The notes: generated by a model not told the origin, from the sequence alone. Shown: positions 9,050-39,258, counted from the stretch's first letter. The stretch is DNA of 64,000 nucleotides from a virus (IMGVR_UViG_3300028591_000108:77914-141913); one strand, 5' to 3'. Made by a program: numbers and translations.

Positions 9050-9050
9050 T

Positions 9051-14014: not shown

Positions 14015-14026
14015 GGTGGTGGTAAT

Positions 14027-15584: not shown

Positions 15585-15597
15585 CGGGGTGAGCTAA

Positions 15598-17373
15598 ATG
15601 GCGGAAAATGTTCTTGAAACACGAATATAGTTACGCTATGGTACTTATTCCCAGTGGATGAATAGTGAAATTATTTTGCTACCGGGGGAAGCCGCAGTAT
15701 GTATTTTCCCTCGTAGTAAAGTAATAGATAATGTTACAGATGATGAGCCGGACAATACGCCTCCTGCCTTTGGCATTAAGATAGGAGATGGCACACGCTA
15801 TTTCTACGAGTTACCCTGGGTATAGGCCATTGCCGCGGATGTATATTCATGGGCCAAAAGTTCAACTAAGCCGACATATACAGCAACTGAAATCACAGGA
15901 CTTGCGGAGTTTATAAATTAGTAGTCCGGTGGTGGTGGAAGTGGTGGCAGTGCAAGCAGCGGCTATCGTATTGTATATGATAGCGCAACTTCTAAATATA
16001 TTTTACAAATGTATGATGCTGATACAGATAGTTGGGTAAATACTACCAGTGAAATTGACTTATCTGCTATACTAAACCGCATCAATACAATTGAACGATG
16101 GGCCAATGGTGCATAGTATAATCTTGGTAATATTGAAACGCCAATTTCTGCTTATATTTATGAAGAAGTTATTGCTTATATGAATTAGCTTGATTATAAT
16201 GATCAAGCTGAACAGCATTAGTTTGTTACTTCTGTTAAATAGGTTGATGGTAAAATTTAGGTTGATCGTTCTGCTATCTCTGCCGCAGATATTACAAGTG
16301 GTGTTTTTAAAACAGAACAAGGTGGAACTGGTTTAACTAGTGTACGAGATGATGAAGTACTTATAGGTAGTGAAGAAGGCGATATTACTACTAAGCGATT
16401 TGTAACCACATTAGAATCATCAGATCGCAATACTTTCGCCACTTCTGGCGCGATTATTGATTATATTAATAATGCTACTGCAGGTTTAACTGGCGCGATG
16501 CATTTTGTGGGTGAGGCACAAGTTACCATCAATAATGGATCTGCCGTCAATCCACAAATAAATGGGTATATTTTTGCCAATGCATAGCCAGGTGATGTTA
16601 TCTTAGCTAATAATTCACAAGAATATGTATGGACTGGAGATTCTTGGCGTTTACTTGGCGATGAAGGTAGCTATGCTATTAAAGGCAGTATAACTAATGT
16701 TGATATTGCAGAAAATGCAGCAATTGCTCAATCAAAAATTGATGGATTAGATGTGACTTTAGATACAAAAGTCACAAAAGTAGAAGGTAAGGATTTATCT
16801 ACTAATGATTTTACCGACGATGCTAAGCAAAAACTCGAAGATATTGAAAATGGCGCGTAGGTAAATGTCATTGAGCATGTATTTTTAAATGATTCTGAAA
16901 TAACACCCGCTAAAATACAAGGGCTTGACAAATCAGTAGATCTTCAAATTGTCGGTATTACGCCTGAACAGAGTGAAAAACTAGCCGGCATTGAGGCAGA
17001 AGCACAAGTTAATGTTATTGAGCATATTGTAGTTGATGGTGTGGAATAGCCGCTTGATAATGCTAAAACTGTAAATATCACAACCAATCCACATACTGAG
17101 CATGAAAATGTAATTGAATCTATTGCTATAAATGGAATAGTCTAGACTCCAGAAAATAAGTAGGTTAATATTATATTAGACCAAGTTGCATTAGATTTAG
17201 ACGTTCTCGCGGGCGCACAGATTCCTAATGGTAATACGCTTTAGGAGGTTGAATAGATTAATAAAAAACTATAGCTTGCTCGCATTTCTGTAACTGGTAA
17301 TGTTCATGATTTATTACAGACAGATAATACATATATAACAATAAATTGCGGCAGTAGTACTGACGTAGTATAA
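15598..17373 (+). CDS. Fibre protein with Mtd-N-like domain (about 591 aa, many TAG)
   Basis: Absent from ORF track; RIQLRY..KIGDG..LPW; repeated AQVNVIEH; KVEGKDLSTNDFT. Confidence 0.75.
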
Positions 17374-17384
17374 GGAGGGATAAG

Positions 17385-17900
17385 ATGACAAATAATGGTA
17401 CATTGCGTATGCGTATTTAGCTAAAAGCCGATACAGAAGCCAATTGGATAGCTCATCCTATCGTTCCTTTAGCTAATGAACTTATTATATATGCGGCAGA
17501 TAATGAACATAATTATGCTCGTTTAAAGGTAGGAGATGGTTCAACCAATGTGAATTCTCTGCCTTTTGTAGATGCCGGAACATTAAACGGACATGAAACG
17601 GAAATAGTAAAATTAGCTAATGCAGAATTATTTCCCACGGTGGGCTCATCTGATAAATTATATGTTGACTTATCTACAAATAGCATTTATCATTATACTA
17701 ATAGTATAGGATATTCATAGTTATCTAATTTTACTTATACAACTGATACAACAACAGTTCATAGTGTCTTACAATGGATGCCAGGAGTTATAACTAGCTT
17801 ATAGGTTGATAATAATATATTAAAAATTAAAACAGGAGAACTTCCTTCTTTATTAACTCAAGATAAAGAAGTAGTAACAAATATCATTAAGGAGGTTTGA
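17385..17900 (+). CDS. Mtd-N-like fibre-associated protein (TAG=Gln)
   Basis: RIQLKADTEANW..KVGDG..LPF. Confidence 0.7.
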
Positions 17901-17902
17901 GC

Positions 17903-18778
17903 ATGGCAACATATATAGGTTCACTTCAAATTGATTCAGATGCACCAGTTCTGCTTGGCTCTACTCTTTATGGTATTTGTAATAGCCCAGCAAACTTGGT
18001 TAATAAAACAGTAATTTTCAATAATTTTGATAATATGGTAGATGGAATTACAATTCATGTTAGATTTTCATATGGTAATAATATTTTAAATGGTGTTAAT
18101 TTAGAAGTTGGTAACACGGCTTCAATACCAGTTAGTGGTAATTGTGTATGCGCGCCAAACGAAGTTATAGCTTTTACTTTAGACCGTACTGGTAGCACAG
18201 CTGTATGGCGCTCACATCATAGCGTAAAAATTGAAACAGATAACGATATTGTAACTAAAATTGCAGGACAAAGTGTTAATTTGGTTACTAGACGATATGT
18301 AGATGATATTGTTCAAGGCGGAGATTCTAGCGGTACGGTACATTATAGAGGTATTTCTGCATATGCACTTACAAACGGAGGTACAGAAACGGCTATTATA
18401 AATGAAAGTTTATTAGAGCCGGAAGTAGGAGATTTAGTAGTTTATGGCGCTAAAGAATTTATATGGACTGGACAAGCTTGGCATGAAATTGGGGATGAAA
18501 GTTCTTATGCATTAAAATCTCACACAACCGATATCTAGTCTGCTATTACTTGGAATGCAGGTACAGTACCATCATTAGGCACGGACATAGATGCAGATGA
18601 TATTACAAATTGGCAGGCGGGTAGCGCTTCAGAAGCTACTGTGCGGAATGGCATATTAAAAATAAAAAACAGTACTACTCCTTCATTATCATATGAATCA
18701 CGCAAAATTCCTAATATAACTAATGTAGGCACAACTCCTTCTTTAAATGTCACGTCTACAGTAGTAGTTGTACCTTAA
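17903..18778 (+). CDS. Tail fibre-associated protein (1 TAG)
   Basis: ORF 17897 extends through TAG 18536 to TAA 18776. Confidence 0.7.
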
Positions 18779-25169: not shown

Positions 25170-26445
25170 TTATTCCACCGAAATTATCGAACGTTATCGT
25201 GACGAAGACCCAAAGGCAGTATGTCGTAATATTACATTTTAGGTAACAGATGATTGTTGTTTAAAATGTTCTTATTGTTATTAGACTCATAAAGGTCATG
25301 CTATGATGACCACTGAAGTGGCTAAATCAATTGTTGATTTATTATTTAGATTGTATGATGAAAATAATGAAGATATGGTAATAAATCATCATACTTATGG
25401 CATTGTATTAGATATGATCGGCGGCGAACCCTTCATGAACGTAGAAGTCATGGATTATATTGTAGATTATTTTATTAAAGAATGTTATCGTCGTGATCAT
25501 ATTTGGCTTACTAATTTTAGAATTAGTATTAGTACTAATGGTCTACTTTATTTTGAGCCATAGGTATAGGCATTTTTAAAAAAATATGCAAATTTAATTA
25601 GTATGAATGTCACAATTGATGGGCCAAAAGAGATACATGACCTTTGTCGAGTAGATTTTTCTAACAATGGTAGCTTTGATCGTGCTATCGCCGCATGGGA
25701 GGACTGGTATATAATTAAACATAATAATATACCAGATACTAAAATAACAATTGCTCCTGAAAATTTACCTAAAATGGGAGAAATATTTAATTTCTTTTTA
25801 TCAAAAGGATGCAAATCTATTCATGCCAACCCTATTTTTGAGCATAAATGGACCACAGAAGAAGCTAGTTTATATTATAAAATATTAATTAAATTAGCTG
25901 ACAAGCTATTGGAAGTAGACGGCGCAGAAAGCTCCTTATTCTCTGAGTTCAAAGGAAATCCACTTCCAGAATCAGACACTAATAACTATTGTGGCGGTAC
26001 TTCTGCAATGCTAGCTTTTGACCCACAAGGATTGGCATATCCATGTTTACGTTATATGGCTAGTTCATTAGATACTAATCGAAAGCCTTTAATTATTGGC
26101 AATACAGATGGTATTTATAATACTCCAGAATATCGTGCAATATATGATGATATGCAAACAGTTACACGCCAATCGCAATCAACGCAAGAGTGTTTAGAAT
26201 GTCCAGTGGCTTCAGGCTGCTAGTGGTGTAGTGCTGAAAATTATAATGAATTTGGTACCTATAATAAGCGTAGTACTAACATATGCTGGATGCACCGTGC
26301 TGAAGCACTCGCGGGTGTATACTACTGGAACAACTATTATAGGAAACATAATTTACCATAGCGTAAAAAATTACATTTACCGGTAGGTCTGGCAATGCAA
26401 ATAATTACATTAAAAGAATATAATAAGTTATTATTATTAACTTAA
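25156..26445 (+). CDS. Radical SAM/SPASM maturase (CXXX-repeat-target-like)
   Basis: ITF(TAG)VTDDCCLKCSYCY(TAG), GGEP, SISTNG, SPASM C..C.....C..C. Confidence 0.85.
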
Positions 26446-26546
26446 ATATTTGACTTTTTTCAATTTTTATGTTATAATAAATAAAAGATTAGGAAAGGAA
26501 CTAATCTTTTAAAATATTTTTTCATTACATGAGGAGGTAATGAGAT

Positions 26547-26888
26547 ATGATTAAAATTTATTCTGACAAAACTGGTAGTTTTTATAACACAGTAGAGGAA
26601 GCCAATCGCGCTGAATTTGAACTAAAGGAAAAGGAAAATTTAGCAAAGATTGAAAAGGAGCGTAAAGAACGTGAGTTAAAAGAAAAGAAGGAAAAGGAAG
26701 TCGCCGAACGTAAAGTTGCTGCAGAAAAGGTTGAAACTGCGCGCAAAGAAATGACCAAAGCCCAGCATGAATATAGTAAAGCACTTCGTGAGTTTATCAA
26801 TAAATATGGAACATATCATTTTTCTAGCTCGGATCCAGCAGATATTCCTACTTTGTTCGATATTTTTGATAAGTTCTTGACTATCTAA
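26547..26888 (+). CDS. Lys/Glu-rich coiled-coil hypothetical protein
   Basis: Own promoter (26450-26478) and RBS GAGGAGG. Confidence 0.7.
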   Translation: MIKIYSDKTGSFYNTVEEANRAEFELKEKENLAKIEKERKERELKEKKEKEVAERKVAAEKVETARKEMTKAQHEYSKALREFINKYGTYHFSSSDPADIPTLFDIFDKFLTI

Positions 26889-27553
26889 TGGCTACTTATA
26901 CAGTTTATATTGGTAGAGATGGTTATTTTTGGCGATATATTTAGTCAGTATGTACTTCTTTTGCCACTGTAAATCGTGGCGCAAATACTTATAGTTCTGA
27001 TGTCGCTACAAAACCCAAGACTTCATCTGAAGTATTAAAACTTGCTGCTGGTGAATTTCCTATTTCTATTAGTTTTAGCGGTAAATGGAGAACTTAGTAG
27101 AATGCAGCAGTTAGACTATGGTTTGCGGATGCAAATGATTATTCAAATAATCGATATGATTTAGGCACTTTACGGGAAGATACTGCTACGAGTGGCAATA
27201 TGTCACGATTTAACTTAACTAAAGATATGACTAAACTTAATGGTAAAACTTTAGCTTTGTATAAAGATACTAGTATTACTTCTGGTGAAGGATGGGGTTT
27301 TATCCTAGGTACCACATCTACTCCTATGGTTACAGTAACTATTAAAACTGTGACAAAACCTACTGTATCCGCAGGCTCGATAATTACTAAAACTTAGATG
27401 GACACGCTAAAAGACTATTAGACACACCGTGGAAAAAGCCCAACTGCAGTTACATAGTATGATACCGCTAAAGCTAGTGTAGCTAATACATATGGAAAAA
27501 GTACTGTCACAGCAGGTAGTACTATAATTGATGATTCTTGGTATAATGGCTAA
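26888..27553 (+). CDS. Thr-rich hypothetical, likely virion protein (several TAG)
   Basis: TAATG coupling; reads through TAGs to TAA. Confidence 0.65.
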
Positions 27554-27589
27554 TATGGCTTAGGACTGAGCCATAATCAGTCCTTTCGA

Positions 27590-27675
27590 TGCCCGTAGGT
27601 GTGCGGCTGCACGGGCGGTCTCTAAAACCGCGGCCTCTGAAGCGAACGGACTGGGTTCGACTCCCAGGCGGGCAG
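27590..27675 (+). tRNA. Amber suppressor tRNA (CUA), probably Gln-inserting
   Basis: Acceptor TGCCCGT/GCGGGCA, AC arm GCGGT-CTCTAAA-ACCGC, T arm CTGGG-TTCGACT-CCCAG, G73. Confidence 0.85.
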
Positions 27676-27683
27676 TTAAACTA

Positions 27684-27745
27684 TCGACACATACAGCAAA
27701 TATATTTCCAGCATTTTAGATAATTGGAGATTATCAGTGTGTCGA
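27684..27745 (+). ncRNA. Stem-CAGCAA scaffold RNA copy 1 (anticodon-loop mimic GGA)
   Basis: TCGACACA/TGTGTCGA stem, CAGCAA, GATAA-TTGGAGA-TTATC. Confidence 0.7.
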
Positions 27746-27751
27746 GTATTT

Positions 27752-27822
27752 GCACCATTGGTGTAAAGGTAACACAGGTGCCTTCCAAGCATCTGATGCC
27801 CGTCCGATTCGGGTATGGTGCT
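27752..27822 (+). tRNA. tRNA-Gly(TCC)
   Basis: Cloverleaf; loop CTTCCAA. Confidence 0.85.
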
Positions 27823-28304
27823 CTTAGGTTCTTCTCTAGCCTATCGCGACAATAGAGAAGCGGTATGAAAGCGCCGTATAAGTACTTCAGGCACTGATAC
27901 TATGTCTTAGCTTGCCTAGGAAAGTAAAGTATCCGACGAGTTATAACGTTCGTAAAAGGTGATATAACCGTACTAATGCTACGGATGTGCATTCACCAAT
28001 CCTTGAGGTGCGAAGAGAGGCGTAAGGCGACACGACACATCGCCCGATGGCAGAGGAATAGCGAGCCTCGGCGCCATAATTTTCCGTATCTTTGAGTGCT
28101 AGCGCCACTAGCTAATCGAATTTACGGAATTTTTTATTTGACTTTATCCCAAATTTCATGTATAATATATATGTAAGGAGGGTGAGAGAAGCTATGTTAG
28201 ACGATTTTATTATGAATTTTTCTTATGATGAATTGGAAGATGAGTATTTGACTAGAGAAGAAATTTATGTTATAATTAATGAAGAAAGGGAAGGAGAATG
28301 AAGG

Positions 28305-28487
28305 ATGGAAAGAATTAGTTTCTGGTATGAGTTTGAAGACAAAGACGGCAAGGTTTCAAATAATGACATTCAGGTTAGTGTAGAGAATGAGAATCGTATT
28401 CCGCGCGGTGAGGTATGCGAAGTTTTTACAAGATTTCTTGCATCCATAGGTTTTTCTACAGAAGGACTCTCTAAACTCTTTGATTAA
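28305..28487 (+). CDS. Small hypothetical protein
   Basis: RBS present; downstream of promoter 28138-28166. Confidence 0.55.
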   Translation: MERISFWYEFEDKDGKVSNNDIQVSVENENRIPRGEVCEVFTRFLASIGFSTEGLSKLFD

Positions 28488-28652
28488 TTAATATTTGACT
28501 TCCAATAAAAATTATTGTATAATAATTATGTTGAATGAGGGAAGATGACAGTTTGGACTGGGAATGGGGAGCAAGTGCCAAGAGTTCCGCTAGAGATACC
28601 TCAATAAAAACGTTTAAGTGCAGAAATAAAATCCTAATAACTTGCATTATAA

Positions 28653-28725
28653 CCGCCACAAGCTCAATTGGTTGAGCACCCGGCTTATATCCGGTTGGTT
28701 CAGGGTTCGAGCCCCTGGTGGCGGA
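28653..28725 (+). tRNA. tRNA-Ile(TAT)
   Basis: Cloverleaf; loop CTTATAT. Confidence 0.8.
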
Positions 28726-29369
28726 CGCGGGCGGAGCACCTAGCCGGTGAAAGTATCAAAGGGTGCAAGGCGCAGTCAATCGTTAGTCGGCGCTCAAGTA
28801 TAAGCAGGTAACGACGCGAAGAGGGAGGCGGTATTCCTAGACTCTCCACCCTGAGCAGTGTAAACGCTCAATAAAGGAATATTCGGCTAGGACGCGGATT
28901 GGGGTTTACGGTGATCCAACTGCGCGTAAACAAAAGGACAACCTACATGTACATGGCATCGGCGGATGTAAAACGAGACTCAGTGACACTGAGGATAATT
29001 ACACGTAAGCCAAGCAGAGACTTGGTATGCCCGAAAACCGTAGGGAGGAGTGGATCTCCTCGCTGGCCGCAAGCTAGAATAGATGGTTCGATTCCATCTG
29101 CGGCGTACCCAAATTAGGTTGGGAGTAGGGCAAATTATATTAGATAAGATGGTTTTCTAAGAGTGTTAAATAACTGGCACTGGTATTAAGCAGTTGTGAC
29201 TGTATCTCAGGGTCGTTCTGAGAAGAGGGACAGCCTATACATAGAGAACTGGTTCGAGTCCAGCGGGTCGCCAATATCGGTGACTAGGCAGAGGGTGCGC
29301 TTATGGATAAGGTTTTTGAAGCAAAAATTACCTCGGTTAGTTTGATAGCTACAAACTAACTTTTTATAT

Positions 29370-29442
29370 CGCACGGTCGTCTAAAGGCTTAGGACGGTTG
29401 GCTCATACCCAACAAATACAAGTTCGATTCTTGTCTGTGCCA
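29370..29442 (+). tRNA. tRNA-Met(CAT), initiator-like
   Basis: Loop CTCATAC; C1xC72 mismatch. Confidence 0.8.
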
Positions 29443-29524
29443 CTTTGGTAAGGGAATCCCACCTGAGCCAACATAAGAGTGTTCGTAAGCCGTAAGCGAG
29501 GGCCGTAATACTCGCTTGCTACTT

Positions 29525-29596
29525 GGCCTTATCGTATAGAGGTTATTACATCCGGCTGTCTACCGGAAAACCAGAGTTCGATTCTCTGTAAGGTCG
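29525..29596 (+). tRNA. tRNA-Asp(GTC)
   Basis: Loop CTGTCTA; G73. Confidence 0.85.
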
Positions 29597-29599
29597 CTT

Positions 29600-29715
29600 T
29601 AGACGTATCAGCAATATTCTTCGCTTTGGGAGCCCGTCAAGTGTTGGTTCGATTCCAACCCTCCCAACTGATGGGAGGTCGCTCAATTGGTAGAAGCGCG
29701 GTTATAGTACGTCTA
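29600..29715 (+). ncRNA. Stem-CAGCAA scaffold RNA copy 2 with circularly permuted tRNA module
   Basis: TAGACGTA/TACGTCTA stem; T arm, then closed acceptor CCTCCCA/TGGGAGG, then D arm. Confidence 0.8.
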
Positions 29716-29720
29716 GTTTT

Positions 29721-29794
29721 GGCCCGGTAGCTCAGTCCAGTAGAGCGTCTGACCGTTAATCAGAAAGTCCCAGGAGCAAAGCCTGGTCGGGCCG
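29721..29794 (+). tRNA. tRNA-Asn(GTT)
   Basis: Loop CCGTTAA; atypical T loop. Confidence 0.75.
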
Positions 29795-30068
29795 CGCTAC
29801 TTCAACATTCCTTTCACCTCTGTAGCATTTGGTGGAAAAATGTTAGTGCTTGGGCACCGCACTATAAAACGTGCCCACTAATATGCCAGCAATAGAAACT
29901 CTGGTCCAGTTCCACACCTTGTTGGCAGCGTAAAAAGCAATAATAGGAGCTTCTCACAAGGAGTTTGGTACTATTACTCCACGGATACAGACCCGTGGCG
30001 GAAGGCATGACCTGAAATGAAAGGTGGCGCCCTAGCAGATGGCAAGTTCGCAATAATCTGCTATTTAT

Positions 30069-30145
30069 GCCCGATTGGTGTAATAGGTTAGCACAGCACC
30101 CTTTCAAGGTGCAGACGTGGAGTTCAAATCTCCCATTGGGTACCA
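30069..30145 (+). tRNA. tRNA-Glu(TTC)
   Basis: Loop CTTTCAA; encoded CCA. Confidence 0.85.
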
Positions 30146-30377
30146 TTCAACCACATAAAGCCTGAATTGACAGGATATGACTGGCCAGTTGAGGTCTGGC
30201 GGCAGACTGATGCGGACTTGTTGAAACATTGGTTTGTGTCTCGTGAGCGACGACAGCCGTGGTGAGGCAGCTATGCCAAAAGAGTGATACTAAAATAGCA
30301 TGTATACGGAATAGACAGACCGACCTGCTATAGCAGGAGGCACGAGGTATCCACCATATAGGCGAGGGCCTCGGTAA

Positions 30378-30438
30378 TAGGCACACGCAGCAAACCTATA
30401 AGGAACAACTTTCTATTAAAAAGTTTTAAATGTGCCTA
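30378..30438 (+). ncRNA. Stem-CAGCAA scaffold RNA copy 3 (anticodon-loop mimic ATT)
   Basis: TAGGCACA/TGTGCCTA; AACTTT-CTATTAA-AAAGTT. Confidence 0.7.
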
Positions 30439-30851
30439 GTATCTCGGTAGAAATGCCATTGCGAAGATAGCTGCCAGCAGCATCTAACGTTCTACCATAT
30501 GAAATGGCATCTTGCGCTTTCGACGCACAGTGGCAGTAGCAAGTAAAAAATAGACCACCTGGCCGTGCAATAGAGCAGTAAAGTGTACGTTAAAAAATCG
30601 GATTCTGCTATCCTACGCTAAAGCGTAATCCGCTTGCCGTAGATAAGGCTTCTCTTGGCCGCGAGGATGTTCCTCGAAATCAAGACATTTGGTCCCCGAG
30701 ACAGTAAAACAGGCATTTCTAGAGTGCAAAGATAGTTCGTTACGGGGTTACATACTATCACAAATACGGGAGTGACGAGAAGTTACCTCACTTAATACTC
30801 TACTTGACCATAGACGTATGGCGAACAAATCCTGTATTTTCTTATCTTTAT

Positions 30852-30935
30852 CCGGGTGTAGCCGAACGGCCCAGGCAACAGACTTAAAATCTGTCGGAGC
30901 AAAGCTCCTTGTGGGTTCGAATCCCACCACCCGGA
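30852..30935 (+). tRNA. tRNA-Leu(TAA)
   Basis: Loop CTTAAAA; long variable arm. Confidence 0.9.
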
Positions 30936-31036
30936 CTTTCCATTAGGTGGAGCTTGGAACCTACCGCCTTTTGGCTGTGATGTATGGGACGCCATAATTG
31001 GCGCCCTTATTTTTAAACAACAAGGAGGAATGTACT

Positions 31037-31414
31037 ATGAAGAAACTTATCGCACTATTACTAACTCTTATGCTCTGTTTTCCTGTATTCGCCTATGCTG
31101 ATGGCGAAGACGACGTTGTTTCAGATACTCACACAGAACACGTTGAAGTTTATACTCCTGTCGAACGTGGCAATTATTCTGTTTCTATTAGTTCTTCCCT
31201 TGATGGGCAGTCTAAGGTAAAAACAGGAACAAAAGTCACTCTAACTGCTCACCTATCTGGTTTCCGTGATGGAGTAGATACTTGGGAAATTACTTGGCAG
31301 GAGAATGATGGTTCAGGTTGGTCCGATGTTGGCTCCGGTAGCACCTATGACTTTAACATTGACGAAGATAATGTAAATCATAAATGGCGCGTCGTAGTCC
31401 ATGTAAAATGGTAA
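31037..31414 (+). CDS. Secreted Ig-like protein
   Basis: Signal peptide MKKLIALLL..AYA; VTLTA..ITWQ..W pattern. Confidence 0.7.
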   Translation: MKKLIALLLTLMLCFPVFAYADGEDDVVSDTHTEHVEVYTPVERGNYSVSISSSLDGQSKVKTGTKVTLTAHLSGFRDGVDTWEITWQENDGSGWSDVGSGSTYDFNIDEDNVNHKWRVVVHVKW

Positions 31415-31429
31415 TTAAGGTGAAGGAAT

Positions 31430-32910
31430 ATGAAAAAACTTATAATACTGGTATTTATTTTACTAATACCCTTTCTTGCCTTATCTGAAGAAGGTGGAGA
31501 AGAAGATATTTATTCTAATGAATATACGCATAATGTTGAAATAATTTCATATTCCTATGATGATGGAGAAGTAGTTTTTTCTGCTGATGTAGAATTAACT
31601 AATATGTTGGGTATTGTTACCATTCAACAAGATGTAAAAGTTTTTAATTATTTTTACGATAGAACTACACGCAAATATGCTGTACCGATGGAAACAACGG
31701 TGAAAAATACAGGGATGGATGCGTATTTGCGCGTATATCTTAATGCATTTCGCACCGTTAAAGCAACTGGCGAAGACGAAGCTATTGACTGGAGTCTTGT
31801 TGAAGTAGGACTATTAGATGAAAATGGTAATTTCCTAACAACTACAACTGATTATGTGTTATTGGGTGATTGCCTATATATGACACAGCCGACTCCATCT
31901 GGTCAATCTATTTATATTGATTACTATGGTTGGCTTAATAATTATCAACATTTGGCTACTAGTTCATATATTAAGACTTTACCTTCAAGTGAAGCAGTCC
32001 AAAAATATAACTTCTATCCAGACTTTACATCTAATGATCCTTGGAATAGTATTAATATTGAACAGCAAAATACTAATATTGATAATGCGGTCAGTAAGTT
32101 CGCATTAAATGTAACTATCGGTAATCAAGATGATATTAATGCTGACCCGCCAGAAGATACTGGATATAAACTGCCGGGAGATACTACTTCATTTGAAGTG
32201 ACTATTAAAATGCCAGCAACAGGATACTTATATCATTTTGTTATCATACGGGCCGCTGATGCTGCGCTGCGAGAAATCTTAACCGATGAATTAACCGTAT
32301 ATGTTATTACTGATGATGGAGAAGAACAACAAATAAATTGGTATGGCAAAGTTGGAGAATATGTAAAAGATACAATTTTAAAGTTTATTTATAAATTAAA
32401 TATTCCAGAAACTTTAAATAATCCATTTGTAGGAGATCAGTTTCAAATTAAGGATGAGTATATAGTTGTAGCAACGCCATCCCCAACTCCAACATCGACA
32501 CCAACTCCTACTCCGACACTCACTCCTACACCAACTCCAAGCCCAACTCCTACATCAACTGCTACAGCAACACCTACACCAAGCCCAACTCCAACTTCTA
32601 TACCTACAGCAACTCCAACCGCTACTCCTACACCAACATTAACTCCAACTTCAACTCCAACTATAACGCCAACACCACTCCTACTTTGGCACCGACATTT
32701 ACACCAGTTATTACTCCTGCGCCAACACCAATAGCGACGCCTATAATAACTAAGAAACCAAAGCCTACAGCGACGCCTCGGCCATCGAATATGCCGCAGC
32801 ATACTCCTGGTCCACCAATGCGTACAATTCCATTATGGATATTGGAACTTTATAAAACACCATTAGGTTTAGATATAATGTATAATCAAGTTGGAGATTG
32901 TTTTGATTAA
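31430..32910 (+). CDS. Secreted surface protein with Pro-Thr repeat; frameshift near 32677
   Basis: Signal peptide; PT repeat continues in the other frame after a 1-nt deletion; ends TPLG..VGDCFD. Confidence 0.65.
32473..32780 (+). repeat. Pro-Thr coding repeat
   Basis: Degenerate ACTCCA/ACACCA hexamers. Confidence 0.8.
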
Positions 32911-32975
32911 TATTTGACTTATTATAAAAATTTTGTTATAATTTTATTGTACCGAGGGGATGAAACCCCTCATAT

Positions 32976-33049
32976 GCTTCCATAGCTCAATTGGCCAGAG
33001 CAATCGCTTCGTAAGCGATGGGTTGCAAGTTCAAGTCTTGCTGGAAGCT
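32976..33049 (+). tRNA. tRNA-Thr(CGT)
   Basis: Loop TTCGTAA. Confidence 0.85.
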
Positions 33050-33317
33050 CTATACGCTTGGTCCGAGCCGTTCAAGAGTAAGCAAGGAACCCAGCTTACA
33101 GGATATTTCCCAACATACCATCATGCGTGGATGAAATAAGAAGAGATGGCGCCCGGTCCAACCGCAGGGCGTTATAAGCGAGCGGTTGGTAATAGTCCTA
33201 GGATCTCACAAGCAGGGACTATAATGAACGGCGTGAGCGCAAGATACTACGAGACAGATCCGGAAGGTAACAGTTCCGTTAAAGTGAAGAGCGATCGGCT
33301 TCATCTGAAAGTTTTAT

Positions 33318-33391
33318 GCCTCTCTAATCCAAATGGCAGAGATAGCACGCTAAGAACGTGTACAGTGTGAGTCCGAATCTCACGAGAGGTA
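33318..33391 (+). tRNA. tRNA-Leu(AAG), short variable loop
   Basis: Loop CTAAGAA; A73. Confidence 0.75.
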
Positions 33392-33509
33392 CGACTGTTG
33401 TTCAGCTGACAACCCAGTGGATGGATTTGACGCATCCCGTGCTACTACTGCGAGAGGGTCACGCTTAGGCTTTGCAAGCGGACCACGGCCCATGAAGGTA
33501 GCACATTAT

Positions 33510-33581
33510 CTCCGGCTAGTCTAAGGGACAGAACGTGTGGCTACGGACCATAAAATCGGCGTTCGAATCGTCGGCTGGAGA
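33510..33581 (+). tRNA. tRNA-Arg(ACG)
   Basis: Loop CTACGGA. Confidence 0.8.
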
Positions 33582-33623
33582 CTTCGCGCGAAAGCGCAAA
33601 TTCATTTTGGAGGTACCTACTAT

Positions 33624-34163
33624 ATGAATGAACCAAGACTAAAGATTCTTCCCCCATGGACGATTCTAGTAAGGAAGCTAGAAGCCTTATTTGACGGTGA
33701 TCCTCAGATTGCTTTCAATGTTGACTTTAGTGGAGAACATCCTTCTGTTGTTCTTTCCTGTAACAATGGAGATAAGGTTGCTGCACTAATGCAGATTCTA
33801 CCTGAAGAAATTAACTTTGGCAATGTTACACTAAAGGTAATGGTAGATGGAACCCCAAGCAACCGCACCTTTAAGAGTAAGGTTGAACTATTTGATACTG
33901 CTTTTTTCAAGAATCCTGCCTATGCGTATTCTGTTTGCCCTGCAGAAGAGGGATATCAGTGGATTGGCACTACTTATGTTGTATTCAACAACTGTGTTGT
34001 ACAGTTCGCAGCTGATAACCTAAATGATTGTCATGGAGTAATTAGTACTCTATATGAGACAATTGCTAGTGAACTTCTAACTGGGCCTGCAACTGAAGGC
34101 GTATTCTTCAATACTAATGTTGAGCGCGCAGGTCTTGGAATGCCGCTTGGCGAGTGGCCATAA
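33624..34163 (+). CDS. Conserved hypothetical protein
   Basis: RBS GGAGG before ATG 33624; the longer ORF-track start lies within a tRNA. Confidence 0.7.
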   Translation: MNEPRLKILPPWTILVRKLEALFDGDPQIAFNVDFSGEHPSVVLSCNNGDKVAALMQILPEEINFGNVTLKVMVDGTPSNRTFKSKVELFDTAFFKNPAYAYSVCPAEEGYQWIGTTYVVFNNCVVQFAADNLNDCHGVISTLYETIASELLTGPATEGVFFNTNVERAGLGMPLGEWP

Positions 34164-34306
34164 CTTTCCTTGAGCGGAAATTTCCGCTCGTTATGCCCAG
34201 ATGGTGAACCAGTGAACACCATCTGGTTTAAAAAAATTTAGTAAACTGAAAGAAAAAAAAATAGTTTGTTTACTTTAATAATACTCTTTATATGGAGGTG
34301 AGCGAT

Positions 34307-34913
34307 ATGAAAAAATGGGAAAAATTTTCGGATAAAGAATTAGAAATTATCGTTCAAAATAGCATTTCATATAGAGAGGTTGCACAAAAATTAGGATATG
34401 CAGAACGTAGTGGCGGTGGGTGTGATGCCGCGCGTGAAATGATTGAAGCTAAGGGTTTTAATATAGACCATTTTTTAGGTCAAGGATGGAATAAAAGTAA
34501 TTTTGATTATGAGCGTTTTCAAGCAGGTAAAGTAATTAAAAGTGCCGCTGCAATTCCAGCTTTAGTACAATTACGAGGACATAAATGTGAGAATTGTGGT
34601 GCAGAAACTTGGTTAGGAAATCCTATTCCATTAGAAGTACATCATATTAACGGTGACAGATTAAATAATACATTAGAGAACTTACAGCTGTTATGTCCTA
34701 ATTGTCATGCTCTTACTGATAATTTTAAGGGTAAAAATAACACTGGTGACAAAAAAAGTAGAAGACGAAGTATTAGTAGAAGCACTTAAAAATAGTTCTA
34801 GTATTCGTCAAGCATTAATTTCTGTTGGACTAGCGGGTCGCGGCGGAAACTATGAACGTGCTCACGAATTAATTGATAAATATAATATTACTAAATTTCA
34901 AAAAGGTGAGTAA
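34307..34913 (+). CDS. HNH endonuclease (frameshift in A-run near 34751)
   Basis: C..C, LEVHHINGD..NN..ENLQLLCPNCH. Confidence 0.8.
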
Positions 34914-34923
34914 TCACCTTTAT

Positions 34924-34999
34924 GCCAGAGTAGACAACCGGTGAAGTCCGCGCACTGAAAATGCGCTATTGATTGGTCCGACTCCAATCTCTGGCACCA
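34924..34999 (+). tRNA. tRNA-Phe(GAA)
   Basis: Loop CTGAAAA; CCA. Confidence 0.85.
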
Positions 35000-35107
35000 T
35001 AATGGATTGGGAGGTGAGCCGGTAGATGAACTTCTCCATTGGCGATGAACCAAAATCAATCCAAAATCTCCTATTGGTTGGTGCGACCCCAACTCTGGGC
35101 ACCATAT

Positions 35108-35183
35108 GCCCGTTTAGCTCAGTTGGCAGAGCTTCCGGCTTACATCCGGACGGTCGGCAGTTCAAGTCTGTCAGCGGGTACCA
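35108..35183 (+). tRNA. tRNA-Val(TAC)
   Basis: Loop CTTACAT; CCA. Confidence 0.9.
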
Positions 35184-35291
35184 AATCCTATAATAGCCAG
35201 TGATAGTATGGACACTAGGGACGCCCTTTAAAGTTGTTCGCGGTAGTGAGAATAACCTTCGCCGTGGCGAAGTAAAAGAGCCACGGGATAT

Positions 35292-35364
35292 GCGCCATTA
35301 GCTCAGCAGGCAGAGCACCGCACTTTTAATGCGGGTGTCCCGGTTTCGAGTACCGGATGGCACA
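35292..35364 (+). tRNA. tRNA-Lys(TTT)
   Basis: Loop CTTTTAA. Confidence 0.85.
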
Positions 35365-35385
35365 CTAATTATAAAGGAGATTAAA

Positions 35386-35604
35386 ATGAGAATTATTTCT
35401 GGAGCTCATAGATTGCCTGGACATGCGTTTTGTGAATGTGGCACTGAATTTGAATTTGATTACGACGAGATTACAAAGGGCAATAATAAACGACATGGTG
35501 CATATATTTATTGGTATAATTCTATTACTTGCCCAGTTTGCAAGAAAGAAATAGAGTTGCCAGATAATTTGGATAGTGTTTGTCCTTGGGTGCCAGATAA
35601 TTGA
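35386..35604 (+). CDS. Small zinc-ribbon protein
   Basis: CECG...CPVC; RBS AAGGAG. Confidence 0.65.
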   Translation: MRIISGAHRLPGHAFCECGTEFEFDYDEITKGNNKRHGAYIYWYNSITCPVCKKEIELPDNLDSVCPWVPDN

Positions 35605-35659
35605 CATTAAATAAAATTTATAGTATAATTATTTCAGTAAGAAGGAAAGGAGTTCTATT

Positions 35660-35890
35660 ATGAGAAATCCAAATCGTATTGATAAGTTTTGTGATGAGCT
35701 TAAAGCGATTTGGCATCAAGTGCCAGATTGGCGCTTTGGGCAACTGATGGAAAATATGCTTAGTGCAAGACTACAAGCAGTATCAGACCCTAATGGTTTC
35801 TTTTATACTGAAGATGAAGAATTGTTTGCTTTCTTTAAAAGTTATATGAATGAAATTATAAAAGAAGGTAGACAAAATAAAGATTGGTAA
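35660..35890 (+). CDS. Conserved phage hypothetical protein
   Basis: MRNPNRI..W..VPDWRFGQL; promoter 35601-35629. Confidence 0.7.
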   Translation: MRNPNRIDKFCDELKAIWHQVPDWRFGQLMENMLSARLQAVSDPNGFFYTEDEELFAFFKSYMNEIIKEGRQNKDW

Positions 35891-36100
35891 TTACATAATC
35901 CACCTGACATGGCTGTGACTACAAGGCGCGGAAAGGTGGCGGCAATCTCTTGCCCAAGTAAGTTGAAACGATATACACTCTTGGGATGAAAAGCCTTAAT
36001 GATGCGAAGATAGAGATATCACGTGAGTTTAGATACATGTGTGTGTAGTCGGTCTCCCTGTGGCCCGTTACGTTAGTAAGTTGGCACAGGGGAAGCTTCT

Positions 36101-36246
36101 AGGAGTGTAAGATAACGGTAGTCGCGCGGTCTCCGGGGCGATAGTGTAAAGAACACGCTAGGAAAGCAAGGGCCTAGTAATTGAAGGGCAGTACTGAGGC
36201 GCTCCACCAAAAACCGCTCGTGTTGGTTCGAATCCAGCCGCTCCTG
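36101..36246 (+). tRNA. tRNA-Trp(CCA) interrupted by a 75-nt tRNA-like insert (36135-36209)
   Basis: Exons 36101-36134 + 36210-36246 give a canonical cloverleaf with loop CTCC|AAA, A1-U72, G73. Confidence 0.85.
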
Positions 36247-36250
36247 CTTA

Positions 36251-36314
36251 AAGACTCGTCAGCAACATTTTTCAAGCATCTGACTTTTAATCTGACTAGC
36301 TATAAACGAGTCTT
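36251..36314 (+). ncRNA. Stem-CAGCAA scaffold RNA copy 4 (tRNA-Lys arm-like payload)
   Basis: AAGACTCGT/ACGAGTCTT; AGCATCTGACTTTTAATC. Confidence 0.7.
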
Positions 36315-36321
36315 GTTTTAT

Positions 36322-36395
36322 GCCTTTCTATCCCAATTGGAAGAGGAAACCGACTCAAAATCGGCTCAGTTTGGGTTCAAATCCCAAGTTAGGCA
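36322..36395 (+). tRNA. tRNA-Leu(CAA), short variable loop
   Basis: Loop CTCAAAA; two acceptor mismatches. Confidence 0.7.
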
Positions 36396-36612
36396 CTCGC
36401 GCCATATAACTTAGGCGCATGGATTACATGTCATCCTTACTATTATACAATTTATTTAGACGTGCTTGAGGGTTCCCACCCGCTGTTGAGAAGAAGCAGA
36501 AAGGGATTATGGTGAGACTCGATAATACCGTAAATACTTTCGAGAAGTATAGGACAATGTTTGAAAAGCCGGATTTCTGTAATTGGGGCGATAACACCAT
36601 CTAGTCCTATAT

Positions 36613-36686
36613 GCCCGAGTAACAGAATTGGCATATGTACGCGGTTCAGAGCCGTGGTTTTGTGGGTTCGACTCCCACCTTGGGCA
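36613..36686 (+). tRNA. tRNA-Leu(CAG), short variable loop
   Basis: Loop TTCAGAG; A73. Confidence 0.75.
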
Positions 36687-36995
36687 CTTATGTTTATCTT
36701 AGATAGGCCCAGTATACTAAAGCGATATAAAGTTCATGGGTTTCGCGTAGAGAAGATAAACATCGCGCCAAAGATACAAATTAAAATAAATATGGCGCAA
36801 TGAGTGCTGCTCCCACTCATATTACTAAAATATTATTGAAACATTACAAATGGAGCAATTTAATTAAAGATGTGCGATCGGTAGCACAAGAAATAATTCC
36901 GAAATAATAGCACGGGTTAGAAGGGCCGGAATTCTATAATTGGGGCCTAAACACCATCCTGAAGTGCTGTTATGCCCACTACTTTGGGCAATTAT

Positions 36996-37066
36996 GGGGA
37001 TATAGTATAACAGTAAAACAGTAGCTTTGCAAGCTTCAGACCGGGGAGCGTCACCCCGTATCTCCA
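36996..37066 (+). tRNA. tRNA-Ala(TGC)
   Basis: G3.U70; loop TTTGCAA. Confidence 0.8.
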
Positions 37067-37076
37067 CATTATTATA

Positions 37077-37147
37077 GGCTCCGAAATCTGGCGGCCGGAT
37101 ACTTGTCTGCAAAACTTGTTTAGTCAGTTCGACTCTGACCGGAGCCT
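37077..37147 (+). tRNA. tRNA-Cys(GCA)
   Basis: Loop CTGCAAA; U73; weak AC stem. Confidence 0.7.
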
Positions 37148-37165
37148 CAATTTGGAGGATTATTT

Positions 37166-37468
37166 ATGATAGGCAATTATAAAATAATAACATTATGTGG
37201 GAGCACCCGCTTCAAGGAGGATTTTGAGCGTGTTAACAGAGAACTTACTTTAGCGGGCAATATTGTCATCAGTGTTGGTTGTTTTGGCCATTCTGGTGAT
37301 ACTTTTACAGAGGAACAAAAAGTAATGCTTGATGATATTCATAAGCGCAAGATTGATATGGCCGATGAAATCTTTGTAATTAATAAAGATAAATATATTG
37401 GCGCAAGTACTCGTAGTGAAATTGAATATGCGATTTTACATGATAAGCCAGTGAGGTATATGGAATGA
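37166..37468 (+). CDS. DUF4406/NDT-fold-like small protein
   Basis: ITLCGSTRF..IHKRKIDMAD..YIG.ST..EIEYA. Confidence 0.65.
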   Translation: MIGNYKIITLCGSTRFKEDFERVNRELTLAGNIVISVGCFGHSGDTFTEEQKVMLDDIHKRKIDMADEIFVINKDKYIGASTRSEIEYAILHDKPVRYME

Positions 37469-37713
37469 GAAAAGGCCGCGGTATAGATCATTATTGGGAA
37501 GTAAGAAAATATTTAGGCGATATAGCTTTATATGCTCATTGCAAATGCGGATTTGAATATGCTTGTTCTTCCAATAAAAGAAAACCAGATGGAAGTGTTA
37601 GTTTTGAGCAAGAAATTACTAAGCTATACTTATATTGTCCTTATTGTGGAGCACGAAAAAAATGGTATAATGATATACCCAGAAAAATAGATAGACTTCA
37701 ATATGGCGGGTGA
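37465..37713 (+). CDS. Small zinc-ribbon protein
   Basis: HCKC...CPYC; stop lies inside the next tRNA. Confidence 0.55.
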   Translation: MRKGRGIDHYWEVRKYLGDIALYAHCKCGFEYACSSNKRKPDGSVSFEQEITKLYLYCPYCGARKKWYNDIPRKIDRLQYGG

Positions 37714-37787
37714 ACCCGGCAAGGCGTGGGACCTGTCTCGAAAACAGTGGGAGCGTAAAGCTTATGGTTCGAGTCCATCGCCCGTCG
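37705..37787 (+). tRNA. tRNA-Ser(CGA)
   Basis: Loop CTCGAAA; long variable arm; G73. Confidence 0.8.
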
Positions 37788-37793
37788 TCATAT

Positions 37794-37879
37794 GTCAAGA
37801 GAACTCAGGCGGCCCTGAGCATCCGTTGGAAGCGGATTGGTCTTGTAAAAGGGATGGAGGTCGGCACTTCCTCTTGGCG
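37794..37879 (+). tRNA. tRNA-Ser(GGA)
   Basis: Loop TTGGAAG; long variable arm. Confidence 0.75.
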
Positions 37880-37890
37880 TATTATATCAG

Positions 37891-38145
37891 ATGGAGTTGA
37901 TGTATATGAGAAATCGTGCAGAAAAACGTCATAATGATTGGAAGAAAGCAATTCGGAAACGGAAGATTGTTGAAGAAGTCTACCAGTGGCCCGAAGGATG
38001 GTATGATAACTTACATCAATATAGTAAGAATAAAGTACATTGTTCTTGCCATGTATGTCGCGGCTGGACTAAACATGGTGAAAATAATATTTCAGATAGA
38101 CGAAAACTTGAAGAAATGAAAGAACAAATACTTGACAATGAATAA
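37891..38145 (+). CDS. Basic hypothetical protein
   Basis: HQYSKNKVHCSC..C motif. Confidence 0.6.
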   Translation: MELMYMRNRAEKRHNDWKKAIRKRKIVEEVYQWPEGWYDNLHQYSKNKVHCSCHVCRGWTKHGENNISDRRKLEEMKEQILDNE

Positions 38146-38266
38146 AATTTCTGATATAATAATAATGTAAAAAGGAGATAATAGTAGAAAGAAGAGGCAA
38201 CTAAAAAGTTTGTTGCAAAAGTAACATGGTAATCATCTCCTTCTTGTGCGGCGAAAGCCGCGTTTA

Positions 38267-38396
38267 TCCACGGTGGCGGAATAGGTAGACGCTAGAAAAG
38301 CTCGGCGCTCGACAGGACAGAAGCGTAGGGTTGCCACCCTGTCGGTGGATGCACGTATGTGTTACCCATATAAGGTGCAAATCCTTATCCGTGGAA
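38267..38396 (+). ncRNA. tRNA-like RNA: Leu-type shell with about 80 nt replacing the anticodon arm
   Basis: TCCACGG/CCGTGGA acceptor, GCG-GAATAGGTAGA-CGC D arm, T arm; no anticodon arm. Confidence 0.7.
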
Positions 38397-38402
38397 TTAT
38401 AA

Positions 38403-38475
38403 CGAGAATGTGGTGTAATCTGGTAACACGGGTGCTTCGGGAGCACCAGTTGCGGTTCAAATCCGACATTTTCGA
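38403..38475 (+). tRNA. tRNA-Pro(CGG), possible 8/4 fold
   Basis: Loop TTCGGGA; CGAGAATG/CATTTTCG. Confidence 0.75.
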
Positions 38476-38480
38476 CACAA

Positions 38481-38588
38481 TAGACGGTTACAGCAATTAT
38501 TGCATACAAGGTGTCATTGGTTCAAATCCAATCTTCTCCATTGGAGAAGTAGCTCAATTGGTAGAGCAATTGATTATGAAACTGTCTA
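38481..38588 (+). ncRNA. Stem-CAGCAA scaffold RNA copy 5 with circularly permuted tRNA module
   Basis: TAGACGGTT/AACTGTCTA; T arm, CTTCTCC-ATT-GGAGAAG, D arm. Confidence 0.8.
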
Positions 38589-38595
38589 GTATTTA

Positions 38596-38688
38596 TAGGC
38601 CATTACAGCAAATTATATATAAATGGTGAAAGAAATGTTTGAGAAACATAACTGAGAAGGTTCGATCCCTTCAAATTTAAATGGCCTA
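38596..38688 (+). ncRNA. Stem-CAGCAA scaffold RNA copy 6 (ASL GAG + T arm)
   Basis: TAGGCCATT/AATGGCCTA; ATGT-TTGAGAA-ACAT; GAAGG-TTCGATC-CCTTC. Confidence 0.75.
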
Positions 38689-38810
38689 GTTTTAGTTGAA
38701 TATTCGCTCCGTTCTGGAGCTAATAGATTGCCGCGTTGGATTGCTCCTATTTGAAAGAGGCAGAGTAGTATCTGCAACTCTTCCGCGGCGTTTTTCTTAT
38801 TGGAGGAATT

Positions 38811-38996
38811 ATGGAAGATAAATTAAAAGGAATTTATGGCTGTTTAAAAATAATGGATATGATGCTTTGTAATTATACTTATGATCCATCTCATGGCGTG
38901 ATACCATTTAAATCTACACAAGAAATGGCAAAATATTTCAGAGCTATGCTACACGCAATTTTACCAGAGGAATATAGATATTATAAAGGAGAATGA
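38811..38996 (+). CDS. Small hypothetical protein
   Basis: RBS GGAGG. Confidence 0.55.
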   Translation: MEDKLKGIYGCLKIMDMMLCNYTYDPSHGVIPFKSTQEMAKYFRAMLHAILPEEYRYYKGE

Positions 38997-39081
38997 CACT
39001 ATGGCGGAATGGTAACGCACCGACCTGCTAAGTCGAGGTTGCTTGTAAAAGGGTATGCACGTTCGAGCCGTGCTAGTGTCG
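38995..39081 (+). tRNA. tRNA-Ser(GCT)
   Basis: Loop CTGCTAA; long variable arm. Confidence 0.85.
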
Positions 39082-39086
39082 CTTAT

Positions 39087-39240
39087 AGTCCCTTAGCGTA
39101 ATGGTAGCGCAGTGGACTTTCGGCTCATAGTTTATTTGGCAAAATACTTTTAAACTAGTTGAGAGATATCAAGAGAAATAGGTTCGATCCCTATTGAGCC
39201 GACGACTCCACACGTGTTGGTCCGATTCCAACAGGGACTG
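39087..39240 (+). tRNA. tRNA-Gln(TTG) interrupted by an 83-nt tRNA-like insert (39121-39203)
   Basis: Exons 39087-39120 + 39204-39240 give GTGGA-CTTT|GAC-TCCAC, AGTCCCT/AGGGACT, G73. Confidence 0.8.
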
Positions 39241-39258
39241 CTTTTAGGAGGGATTATT

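Follow-up and report, generated by a model that had tools for sequence, protein, structure and literature searches.

Phages that use genetic code 15, such as crAss-like phages, Lak and phAss-1, carry a suppressor tRNA (tRNA-Sup) with the anticodon CUA (Borges et al., bioRxiv 10.1101/2021.08.26.457843; PMC9523058; PMC10607447; PMC10879173). In such phages, in-frame TAG codons are confined to late, structural and lysis genes and align with glutamine, the suppressor tRNA heads a tRNA array, and no phage synthetase was found, charging by the host being assumed. How a phage that reads UAG as Gln gets a host synthetase to charge a tRNA devoid of the Gln anticodon was left open by Borges et al. Here, we analyse an amber suppressor tRNA gene at positions 27590-27675 (+ strand) of a 64,000-nucleotide stretch of viral DNA (IMGVR_UViG_3300028591_000108:77914-141913, called the window hereafter). 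It is like the code-15 suppressors in all these respects; neither its second hairpin nor any special variable region is described in the passages of those papers that were consulted.

A second system close to this one is su7 of E. coli, a tRNA-Trp with the anticodon CUA that is charged with Gln (PMC9976931). The same source gives U35, G73 and a weak 1-72 pair as bacterial Gln identity elements, which backs what the earlier note on this DNA had stated, and relates that the amidotransferase route to Gln relies on U1-A72; tRNA-Trp bodies are marked by A1-U72, A9, G3-C70, G4-C69 and G5-C68 (PMC9976931, Table 1), together with a short variable loop. Glutaminyl-tRNA synthetase (GlnRS) tends to accept amber suppressors as substrates (Borges et al., bioRxiv 10.1101/2021.08.26.457843; PMC9976931). 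Finally, class II tRNAs and allo-tRNAs with long variable arms have an extra arm between the anticodon and T arms, and allo-tRNAs can carry CUA (Mukai et al. 2017, PMC5389517).

The tRNA is 86 nucleotides (nt) long, with the anticodon CTA and a 7/5 cloverleaf (ARAGORN), and its gene encodes no CCA. The 5' acceptor strand TGCCCGT (27590..27596) pairs with GCGGGCA (27668-27674) in the sequence, in the ARAGORN drawing and in the pair counts of the family described below, giving U1-A72, G2-C71 and C3-G70 next to the discriminator G73 (27675). A short D region, drawn by ARAGORN with a 4-base-pair (bp) stem and a 6-nt loop, is followed by the anticodon arm GCGGT CTCTAAA ACCGC (27615..27631; anticodon at 27622-27624), whose 7-nt loop C-U-CUA-A-A has U33 and a purine at 37. 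The 19-nt variable region GGCCTCTGAAGCGAACGGA (27632-27650) leads to the T arm CTGGG TTCGACT CCCAG (27651..27667), paired in every member of the family. The 7-bp acceptor, the 5-bp T stem and the TTCGA-type loop have the form of an elongator tRNA. U1-A72, G73, the small D arm and the length of the variable region are as the earlier note had them. Its description of that region as weakly paired did not hold: positions 27633..27643 make up a hairpin, with a GC/GC stem and the 7-nt loop CTCTGAA (27635-27641), that is conserved, has a covarying stem and a closing C-G pair, and shares its loop with the anticodon loop of phage tRNA-Gln(CUG).

The type named supE offers another comparison: supE suppressors are tRNA-Gln with G36 changed to A. 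The window's suppressor shares with them U1-A72, G2-C71, G73, U35 and the insertion of Gln, the latter as deduced from the alignment of TAG codons given below. It differs in having two arms, C3-G70, A38 and a 19-nt variable region, where supE has G3-C70, U38 and a class I variable loop of 4-5 nt; among phage tRNA-Gln, however, no 3-70 pair is more frequent than C3-G70 (10/22). The arms of phage tRNA-Gln(CUG), GCGGC CUCUGAA GCCGx, differ from its decoding arm at positions 31, 36 and 39, and some of them also at 43.

The hairpin defines a family of two-armed tRNAs. The core 15-mer of the decoding arm, CGGTCTCTAAAACCG, occurs in at least 115 places of IMG/VR contigs. Eighty phage loci were sampled and yielded 73 CUA tRNAs with this 15-mer (ARAGORN), on very diverse bodies: class I with G1-C72 and A73, Ser-type class II, and a group similar to the suppressor of the window. 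Unique CUA tRNAs numbered 66, including two from another pattern (L242 and L275), the suppressor of the window and that of phage cr113_1, the sequence of which duplicates L017; 36 are class I, 22 have the small hairpin in the variable region and 8 are other long forms. Within the arm-defined sample, 19 of the 27 unique CUA tRNAs with a long variable region have the spare hairpin, while by our estimate about 1% of random 20-nt regions would hold such a 7-mer. Adding L242 and L275, found by a scan with the hairpin pattern, and the suppressor of the window gives the set of 22, which is defined by a regular expression. These two finds have other decoding stems, GCAGA/TCTGT and GCGGA/TCCGT. The layout is D arm, CUA arm, a linker of 0-5 nt, hairpin, 5-7 nt and T arm. 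The pattern of the family places after the CUA arm a hairpin whose 7-nt loop reads YUYUGMM and whose closing pair is C-G, and the window's suppressor has this, with CTCTGAA on a 2-bp stem. The member in cr113_1, a crAss-like phage, carries the annotation tRNA-Gln. One locus, L007, matched the arm pattern and was discarded, as it is not a tRNA. The family members at L021 and L017 have a well-paired hairpin. At L021 the two-armed CUA tRNA has as neighbours tRNA-Leu(TAA) and a CUA tRNA of class I whose decoding arm is the same.

Conservation and covariation are both seen in the hairpin. Its loop is CTCTGAA in 15 of the 22 members and CTTTGAA in three, the rest being four variants found once each, and the stems measure 2-5 bp. 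A covariance model (R1) built from the 22 members gave 25 matches, 24 of them distinct, which were realigned (alignment A4). There, pairing in the helix of the hairpin reaches 97.1% and 24/24 sequences have the closing C-G, next to an acceptor that is 94.4% paired and a T stem that is 100% paired. Two pairs of the hairpin vary on both sides (UA 12, GC 6, AU 1, CG 1 for one; CG 14, GC 8, UA 1 for the other), and the structure as a whole beats all 500 shuffles and every slid control. The model scores the window's suppressor, a seed member, at 71.9 bits and its orthologue in the related genome G001, from outside the seed, at 59 bits.

The loop has its counterpart in phage tRNA-Gln. A pattern combining the hairpin loop with a T loop found 29 motif-bearing tRNAs, 16 of which are true phage tRNA-Gln(CUG), and in these the seven letters of the hairpin loop are the anticodon loop CUCUGAA; adjoining phage tRNA-Gln(UUG) genes have the anticodon loop CTTTGAA. 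The spare hairpin is, from this comparison of sequences, a copy of the top of the tRNA-Gln anticodon arm. The acceptor end of the family also looks Gln-like rather than Trp-like: U1 is present in 16/22 members and 1-72 is unpaired in 8/23, where the phage Gln set has U1-A72 in 17/22 and the phage Trp set A1-U72 in 39/72; G2-C71 is found in 18/22 of the family, 16/22 of the Gln set and 13/72 of the Trp set. The corresponding figures for G73 are 16/22, 8/22 and 70/72. D-arm motifs fail to separate Gln from Trp. Our literature search found no description of the spare hairpin, though members may be listed in the tRNA tables that supplement PMC10879173, which lay outside the search, and we regard the two-armed build as a variant of the code-15 phage suppressor tRNA for which no published description was found.

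The late genes of this phage depend on the reading of TAG. Read through TAG, open reading frames (ORFs) extend to 1846 amino acids (20 TAG), 854 (15), 591 (17), 997 (21) and 680 (20), and the genes concerned are late and structural: tail fibres, portal and a terminase-like protein. Genes of nucleotide metabolism and RNA repair have no TAG at all. Outside the window, an open frame of 5516 amino acids with 160 TAG occupies 1625-18175 of the contig on the minus strand. The 30 ORFs with at least two TAG hold 401 TAG, 416 CAA and 108 CAG in 20,248 codons, and 28 TAG-free ORFs hold 111 CAA and 97 CAG in 6,480 codons; TAG makes up 43% of TAG, CAA and CAG in the TAG-using ORFs, in which CAG is depleted. 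The tRNA, with its anticodon CUA in a phage whose late genes need TAG to be read through, is a real amber suppressor, as the earlier note had it.

The amino acid at TAG was tested in two genes, encoding the portal (nine TAG) and a radical SAM protein. Among 120 full-length homologues of the portal, Q occupies the column of residue 104 in 120/120, 269 in 119/120, 318 in 120/120, 152 in 89/120, 414 in 86/120, 436 in 81/120 and 457 in 57/120; the two other columns are taken up further on. Because homologous proteins might have been predicted with TAG preset to Q, we also examined the portal DNA of 80 relatives, 30 of which have no TAG in the gene. The TAG columns of the query hold CAA or CAG in relatives that lack TAG, with for example CAA in 50, CAG in 12 and TAG in 18 of the 80. 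When each of 355 portal TAGs was compared with its closest TAG-free relative, the residue was Q at 215, E at 41, S at 26, K at 14, Y at 2 and W at 0. In the same relatives (loci L123-L202), a few single TAGs occupy columns where 79-80 of 80 sequences have E, and E also predominates in three columns that contain 8-9 TAGs; some lineages may have undergone E-to-Q changes, contain errors or read TAG in another way.

For the radical SAM protein, 113 of the 120 homologues listed were aligned after seven longer than 500 amino acids were dropped, and three TAG sites have Q in 109, 108 and 113 of the 113. Another TAG lies upstream of the real start. A TAG at residue 414 (26221-26223), within a C-x-W-C motif, faces A in 83, S in 18 and G in 11 of the 113, which is odd for Gln. 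Over both genes, six TAG sites have Q in 108-120 of 113-120 homologues. From these alignments and the codons of relatives, UAG is well supported as Gln, as the earlier note had read it, and Ser, Trp and Tyr as the inserted residue are not supported.

Searches for GluRS/GlnRS, TrpRS/TyrRS and GatB domains found none in the contig, and the same searches match 14, 14 and 12 of 14 control genomes; for this reason we infer charging by the host. We consider it probable that the tRNA is a working, two-armed amber suppressor of a phage whose late and structural genes use UAG for Gln, charged by a host enzyme with the hairpin giving the Gln signal. That enzyme, most likely GlnRS, would recognise U35 along with an acceptor end of the Gln type, marked by G2-C71, G73 and a 1-72 pair that is weak or open, as in known E. 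coli amber suppressors. Since 1-72 is weak or unpaired in either orientation across the family, the end suits an enzyme that opens this pair, such as GlnRS, and the amidotransferase route less so. The spare hairpin would most likely supply or replace the Gln anticodon signal (U35, G36) lost by the CUA anticodon, and the Trp-like decoding arm would be of a type common to tRNAs with C34 and A36, tuned for decoding.

In its most explicit form, the hairpin would be a displaced identity element: GlnRS of the host, or a non-discriminating glutamyl-tRNA synthetase with the amidotransferase, would read the CUG/UUG loop while the ribosome reads the CUA arm. We put this forward tentatively.

Several observations weigh against charging with Gln by way of the hairpin, or against parts of it. 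The variable arm of class II tRNAs points away from the anticodon, and with this geometry GlnRS could not bind the acceptor end and the spare loop together in the known way. The hairpin stem of the window's suppressor has only 2 bp (GC/GC) and is not formed by RNAfold, and C3-G70 and A38 are not those of the Gln identity elements known in E. coli. The family was set in part by the regular expression of the loop and A4 was fitted to the structure of the model, so its pair counts favour that structure. In similarity of body (acceptor, D and T; k nearest neighbours), 10/22 members are nearer Gln and 12/22 nearer Trp, by a weak method that classed 14/22 Gln tRNAs correctly when each was left out in turn. 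The contig is 78% complete (CheckV), so a phage synthetase could sit in the missing part, and the presence of a GlnRS in the host is an assumption. Two portal columns are not those of Gln, with E in 91/120 and Q in 13/120 at residue 144, and T in 72/120 and S in 27/120 at residue 392. Three further TAG sites of the radical SAM protein align with K/E, A/S/G (112/113) and K/R. Finally, the suppressor and the tRNA-Trp of G001 have the rarer stem GGCT/AGCC in common, their arms being 15/17 identical, a likeness to which we return below.

A different account of the same hairpin makes it a leftover with no present role: an ancestral tRNA-Gln(CUG) would have acquired an additional arm, duplicated or inserted, and charging would proceed through the acceptor end and U35 alone. 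The layout of the family would result if a new arm had entered on the 5' side of the original anticodon arm, the stem in the window's suppressor has decayed to 2 bp, and this very phage has tRNA-like pieces inserted in the anticodon loops of its tRNAs. Yet the loop and the closing C-G were kept while all other stems of the family diverged, and the stem of the hairpin covaries. Members occur in crAss-like phages as well as in this Firmicutes-type phage, and the orthologue shared by G001 and G018 keeps CUG in the loop (TTCTGAG) though two base pairs of its decoding stem changed. We find a functionless remnant rather unlikely.

The remaining question is that of the decoding arm, which the earlier note traced to an arm of the Trp type and not to tRNA-Gln. 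The tRNA-Trp(CCA) gene of the window (36101..36247, + strand) is interrupted in its anticodon loop after CTCC (36134), by an insert of 75 nt (36135-36209 in the CCA reading). ARAGORN -i places the cut two bases earlier and labels the gene Leu(CAA). We accepted Trp(CCA) because G018, G019, G010 and G007 have orthologues free of the insert that match in acceptor, D and T arms and read CCA; the arms are, for example, GCGGT CTCCAAA ATCGC in G018 and GCGGT CCCCAAA ACCGC in G019. If the 75-nt insert is removed at the CCA junction, the arm of the suppressor is identical to that of tRNA-Trp at 16/17 positions, as the earlier note had reported, and in 5/5 stem pairs. The other 17 tRNAs found by ARAGORN in the window reach at best 11/17 and 3/5 pairs, so the likeness to Trp exceeds what is usual among tRNAs of this phage. 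The arm GCGGTCTCTAAAACCGC at 27615-27631 is the sole match in the window when up to two mismatches are allowed, and 0/100 shuffles matched. The insert itself has pairing ends GGGGCG/CGCTCC and a terminal ACCA, much as an acceptor helix in miniature. Its fold is more stable than those of shuffles (z = -2.07), and the orthologues in G018 and G019 lack it.

From such a likeness one may propose that the decoding arm came from the phage's own tRNA-Trp, by a C35-to-U change or by copying of the arm, as in a natural su7, with GlnRS charging through U35 and G73. The comparison with su7 is close for the arm: both have the form xCGGU CUCUAAA ACCGx, G73, U35 and Gln (PMC9976931), and the arm in the window equals that of E. 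coli trpT with C35 changed to U, except for pair 27-43. In a survey of 180 phage tRNA-Sup, 19.4% were assigned the Trp isotype (Kienbeck et al., PMC10879173). The body speaks otherwise, with U1-A72, G9, C3-G70, C4-G69, C5-G68 and a 19-nt variable region holding the hairpin; only G73 and G2-C71 fit, and 4/10 of the bacterial Trp identity elements listed in PMC9976931 are present.

Relatives divide on the matter. The portal of G001 is 97% identical to that of the window, and the orthologous suppressor agrees with the window's in D arm and T stem but has one different base in the T loop, the hairpin loop TTCTGAG and 1-72 flipped to A-U. Its decoding stem is GGGCT/AGCCC, two pairs being swapped by compensating changes, and it shares 4/5 stem pairs with the tRNA-Trp of G001, next to 5/5 in the window. 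Four of five pairs are also shared in G019 and by one of the two suppressors of G016. G018 carries the same suppressor as G001, and its stem mismatches the resident tRNA-Trp, of the window type, leaving 3/5 pairs; 3/5 is found again in G014 and G015, where pair 31-39 of the suppressor is A-U as in their own tRNA-Gln. A strict co-variation of the two arms, suggested by G001, was dropped as a rule after G018, G014 and G015. From the stem of G001, occasional exchange or copying between suppressor and Trp arms may take place.

The arm is also found well beyond Trp. The E. coli trpT arm, CCGGT CTCCAAA ACCGG, and the arm of E. coli tRNA-Ser(CGA), CCGGT CTCGAAA ACCGG, differ at position 35 only, so from either of them a single change leads to a CUA tRNA with this arm; the CUA tRNA of the phage contig L071 is E. 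coli tRNA-Ser(CGA) with the single change of G35 to T. Since the arm occurs on Ser-type and other bodies and trpT and Ser(CGA) have it in common, it cannot name its parent. The resemblance to Trp is real, but poor evidence of descent, and the derivation in the earlier note was not borne out; we hold a Trp origin to be doubtful. We prefer the simpler reading that anticodons with C34 and A36 (Trp CCA, Ser CGA, Sup CUA) have one optimal type of arm in common, in line with the idea of an 'extended anticodon' (PMC11231383).

That the tRNA is a class II suppressor charged by seryl-tRNA synthetase, or inserts Trp, Tyr or Leu, is highly improbable: the long variable region, G73, tRNA-Sec as best Rfam clan match, the true Ser-type CUA tRNAs of phage contigs such as L071 and the radical SAM TAG aligned with A/S/G speak for it, against six TAG sites in invariant or nearly invariant Q columns with CAA/CAG in relatives, S, Y and W as closest residue at only 26, 2 and 0 of the 355 TAGs, U1-A72 in place of the G1-C72 of the Ser-type examples, and a variable hairpin whose 7-nt loop and 2-4-bp stem are unlike the sampled Ser-type arms. 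Descent of the supD type, from tRNA-Ser, was rejected likewise: U1-A72, the small D loop and the 2-bp hairpin contrast with the Ser body (G1-C72, large D loop) and well-paired long variable arm of that type, L071 being the example compared, and TAG is not Ser.

Two labels given by programs were also set aside. ARAGORN calls every CUA tRNA found tRNA-Pyl, which has a very short variable loop and is paired with the pyrrolysyl-tRNA synthetase system; here the variable region is 19 nt and the TAG columns are Q, not K. The best clan match in Rfam is tRNA-Sec, at 33.2 bits, under the gathering score of 47; this score comes from the long variable region, and the tRNA, with 7/5 geometry in place of 8/5, 9/4, 8/4 or 9/3, is no tRNA-Sec. 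Allo-tRNAs have 8/4 or 9/3 geometry and insert Ser (Mukai et al. 2017, PMC5389517), which differs from the 7/5 geometry, the anticodon-like 7-nt loop on a stem of 2-4 bp and the Gln found here.

The suppressor is the first of 18 ARAGORN tRNAs, all on the + strand, in an array at 27.5-39.3 kb. The window comprises bases 77914-141913 of one 141,913-bp virus contig with 38% G+C, contained in runs labelled sheep gut metagenome. Its portal is 28% identical to those of phAss-1 and the Enterococcus EF1 group. A megablast of 26000-40000 against GenBank phages gave zero matches, and blastn of the tRNA against the same phages gave cr113_1 only; searching for related loci with the radical SAM protein alone gave one, L005. 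In L005 an identical 86-nt copy is followed by CCA, 6 nt and tRNA-Gly. In the window, a 76-nt spacer (27676..27751, + strand) precedes tRNA-Gly(TCC) (27752-27823) and folds into a long hairpin CGACACA.../...TGTGTCG (-15.5 kcal/mol, z = -3.25; 2/200 shuffles are equally good). A further difference from code-15 phages is that Rfam at E<=1 shows no family of HDV-like theta ribozymes after the tRNA, the motif of the theta-ribozyme paper not having been run.

Upstream, the late gene, which contains TAG, ends in TAA at 27551-27553, just after a TGGTATAAT motif (27539-27547), and an 8-bp hairpin AGGACTGA ... TCAGTCCT (27562..27584, + strand) lies between this stop and the tRNA, both read from the sequence. 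A consensus scan for promoters and terminators found no site directly before the suppressor. Six strong promoter-like 40-mers (TTGACT-17 nt-TATAAT) are distributed across the tRNA array, from 28127 to 38160, none of them right before it. Three RNA-library runs (X2, X19 and X18) and one DNA run (X1) were compared over 27400-39400 as contigs, which cannot reveal transcription, ends or levels. One RNA-library contig stops within the suppressor, at 27619, and none of the joints listed for these four runs coincides with the insert in Trp or in Gln. Rfam has a match to its motif cow-rumen-4 RNA (59.6 bits, gathering score 48.5) at 26481-26543, which separates the radical SAM gene from the late gene that follows.

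A second CUA 'tRNA' (39121..39203, + strand; ARAGORN, and 43 bits as tRNA in Rfam) is AU-rich, with A at 33 and the discriminator A73, and has a competing long-hairpin fold; its role as a decoder is doubtful. It lies within the anticodon loop of a tRNA-Gln(UUG) (39087-39241), split as CTTT, an insert of about 85 nt and GAC, and the outer tRNA-Gln has an uninterrupted orthologue in G001. Genes for an RNA ligase, a polynucleotide kinase and a phosphoesterase are found 3-12 kb downstream of the split tRNA-Gln. In a possible route, the inner unit would be excised by RNase P/Z and the halves rejoined by the ligase. A pattern made from this second CUA tRNA had no match in viral contigs, and a literature search found no paper on short inserts in the anticodon loops of phage tRNAs.

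Other elements of the region are also tRNA-like. At about 38270-38400, a seemingly interrupted gene combines a T arm with a 5' part resembling class II; in contigs of either library type, DNA or RNA, 38292-38294 are joined to 38367-38371 or the letters differ there, so strains differ in that insert. A weak Rfam match to YrlA (Y RNA-like; 34.9 bits, cut-off 69) at 38481-38591 looks like the 3' half of a tRNA placed before the 5' half, and near it lies a gene for a DUF2828/DUF7788 'RNA-binding protein' (44302-45828; PHROG 850, E 1.8e-113).

For annotation, the sequence of its decoding arm is unfit for naming the parent of a suppressor, and both the 'Pyl' label of ARAGORN and the Sec-like Rfam score of such tRNAs are artefacts. 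The Gln anticodon loop, copied and conserved next to the arm that decodes, provides a concrete hypothesis, open to test at the bench, for the charging of the UAG reader in these phages, and the two-armed build could be a useful design for orthogonal suppressor tRNAs. Were the hairpin indeed a displaced identity element, a reader of a stop codon would keep full Gln identity despite the loss of G36, the synthetase and the ribosome each seeing a separate anticodon.

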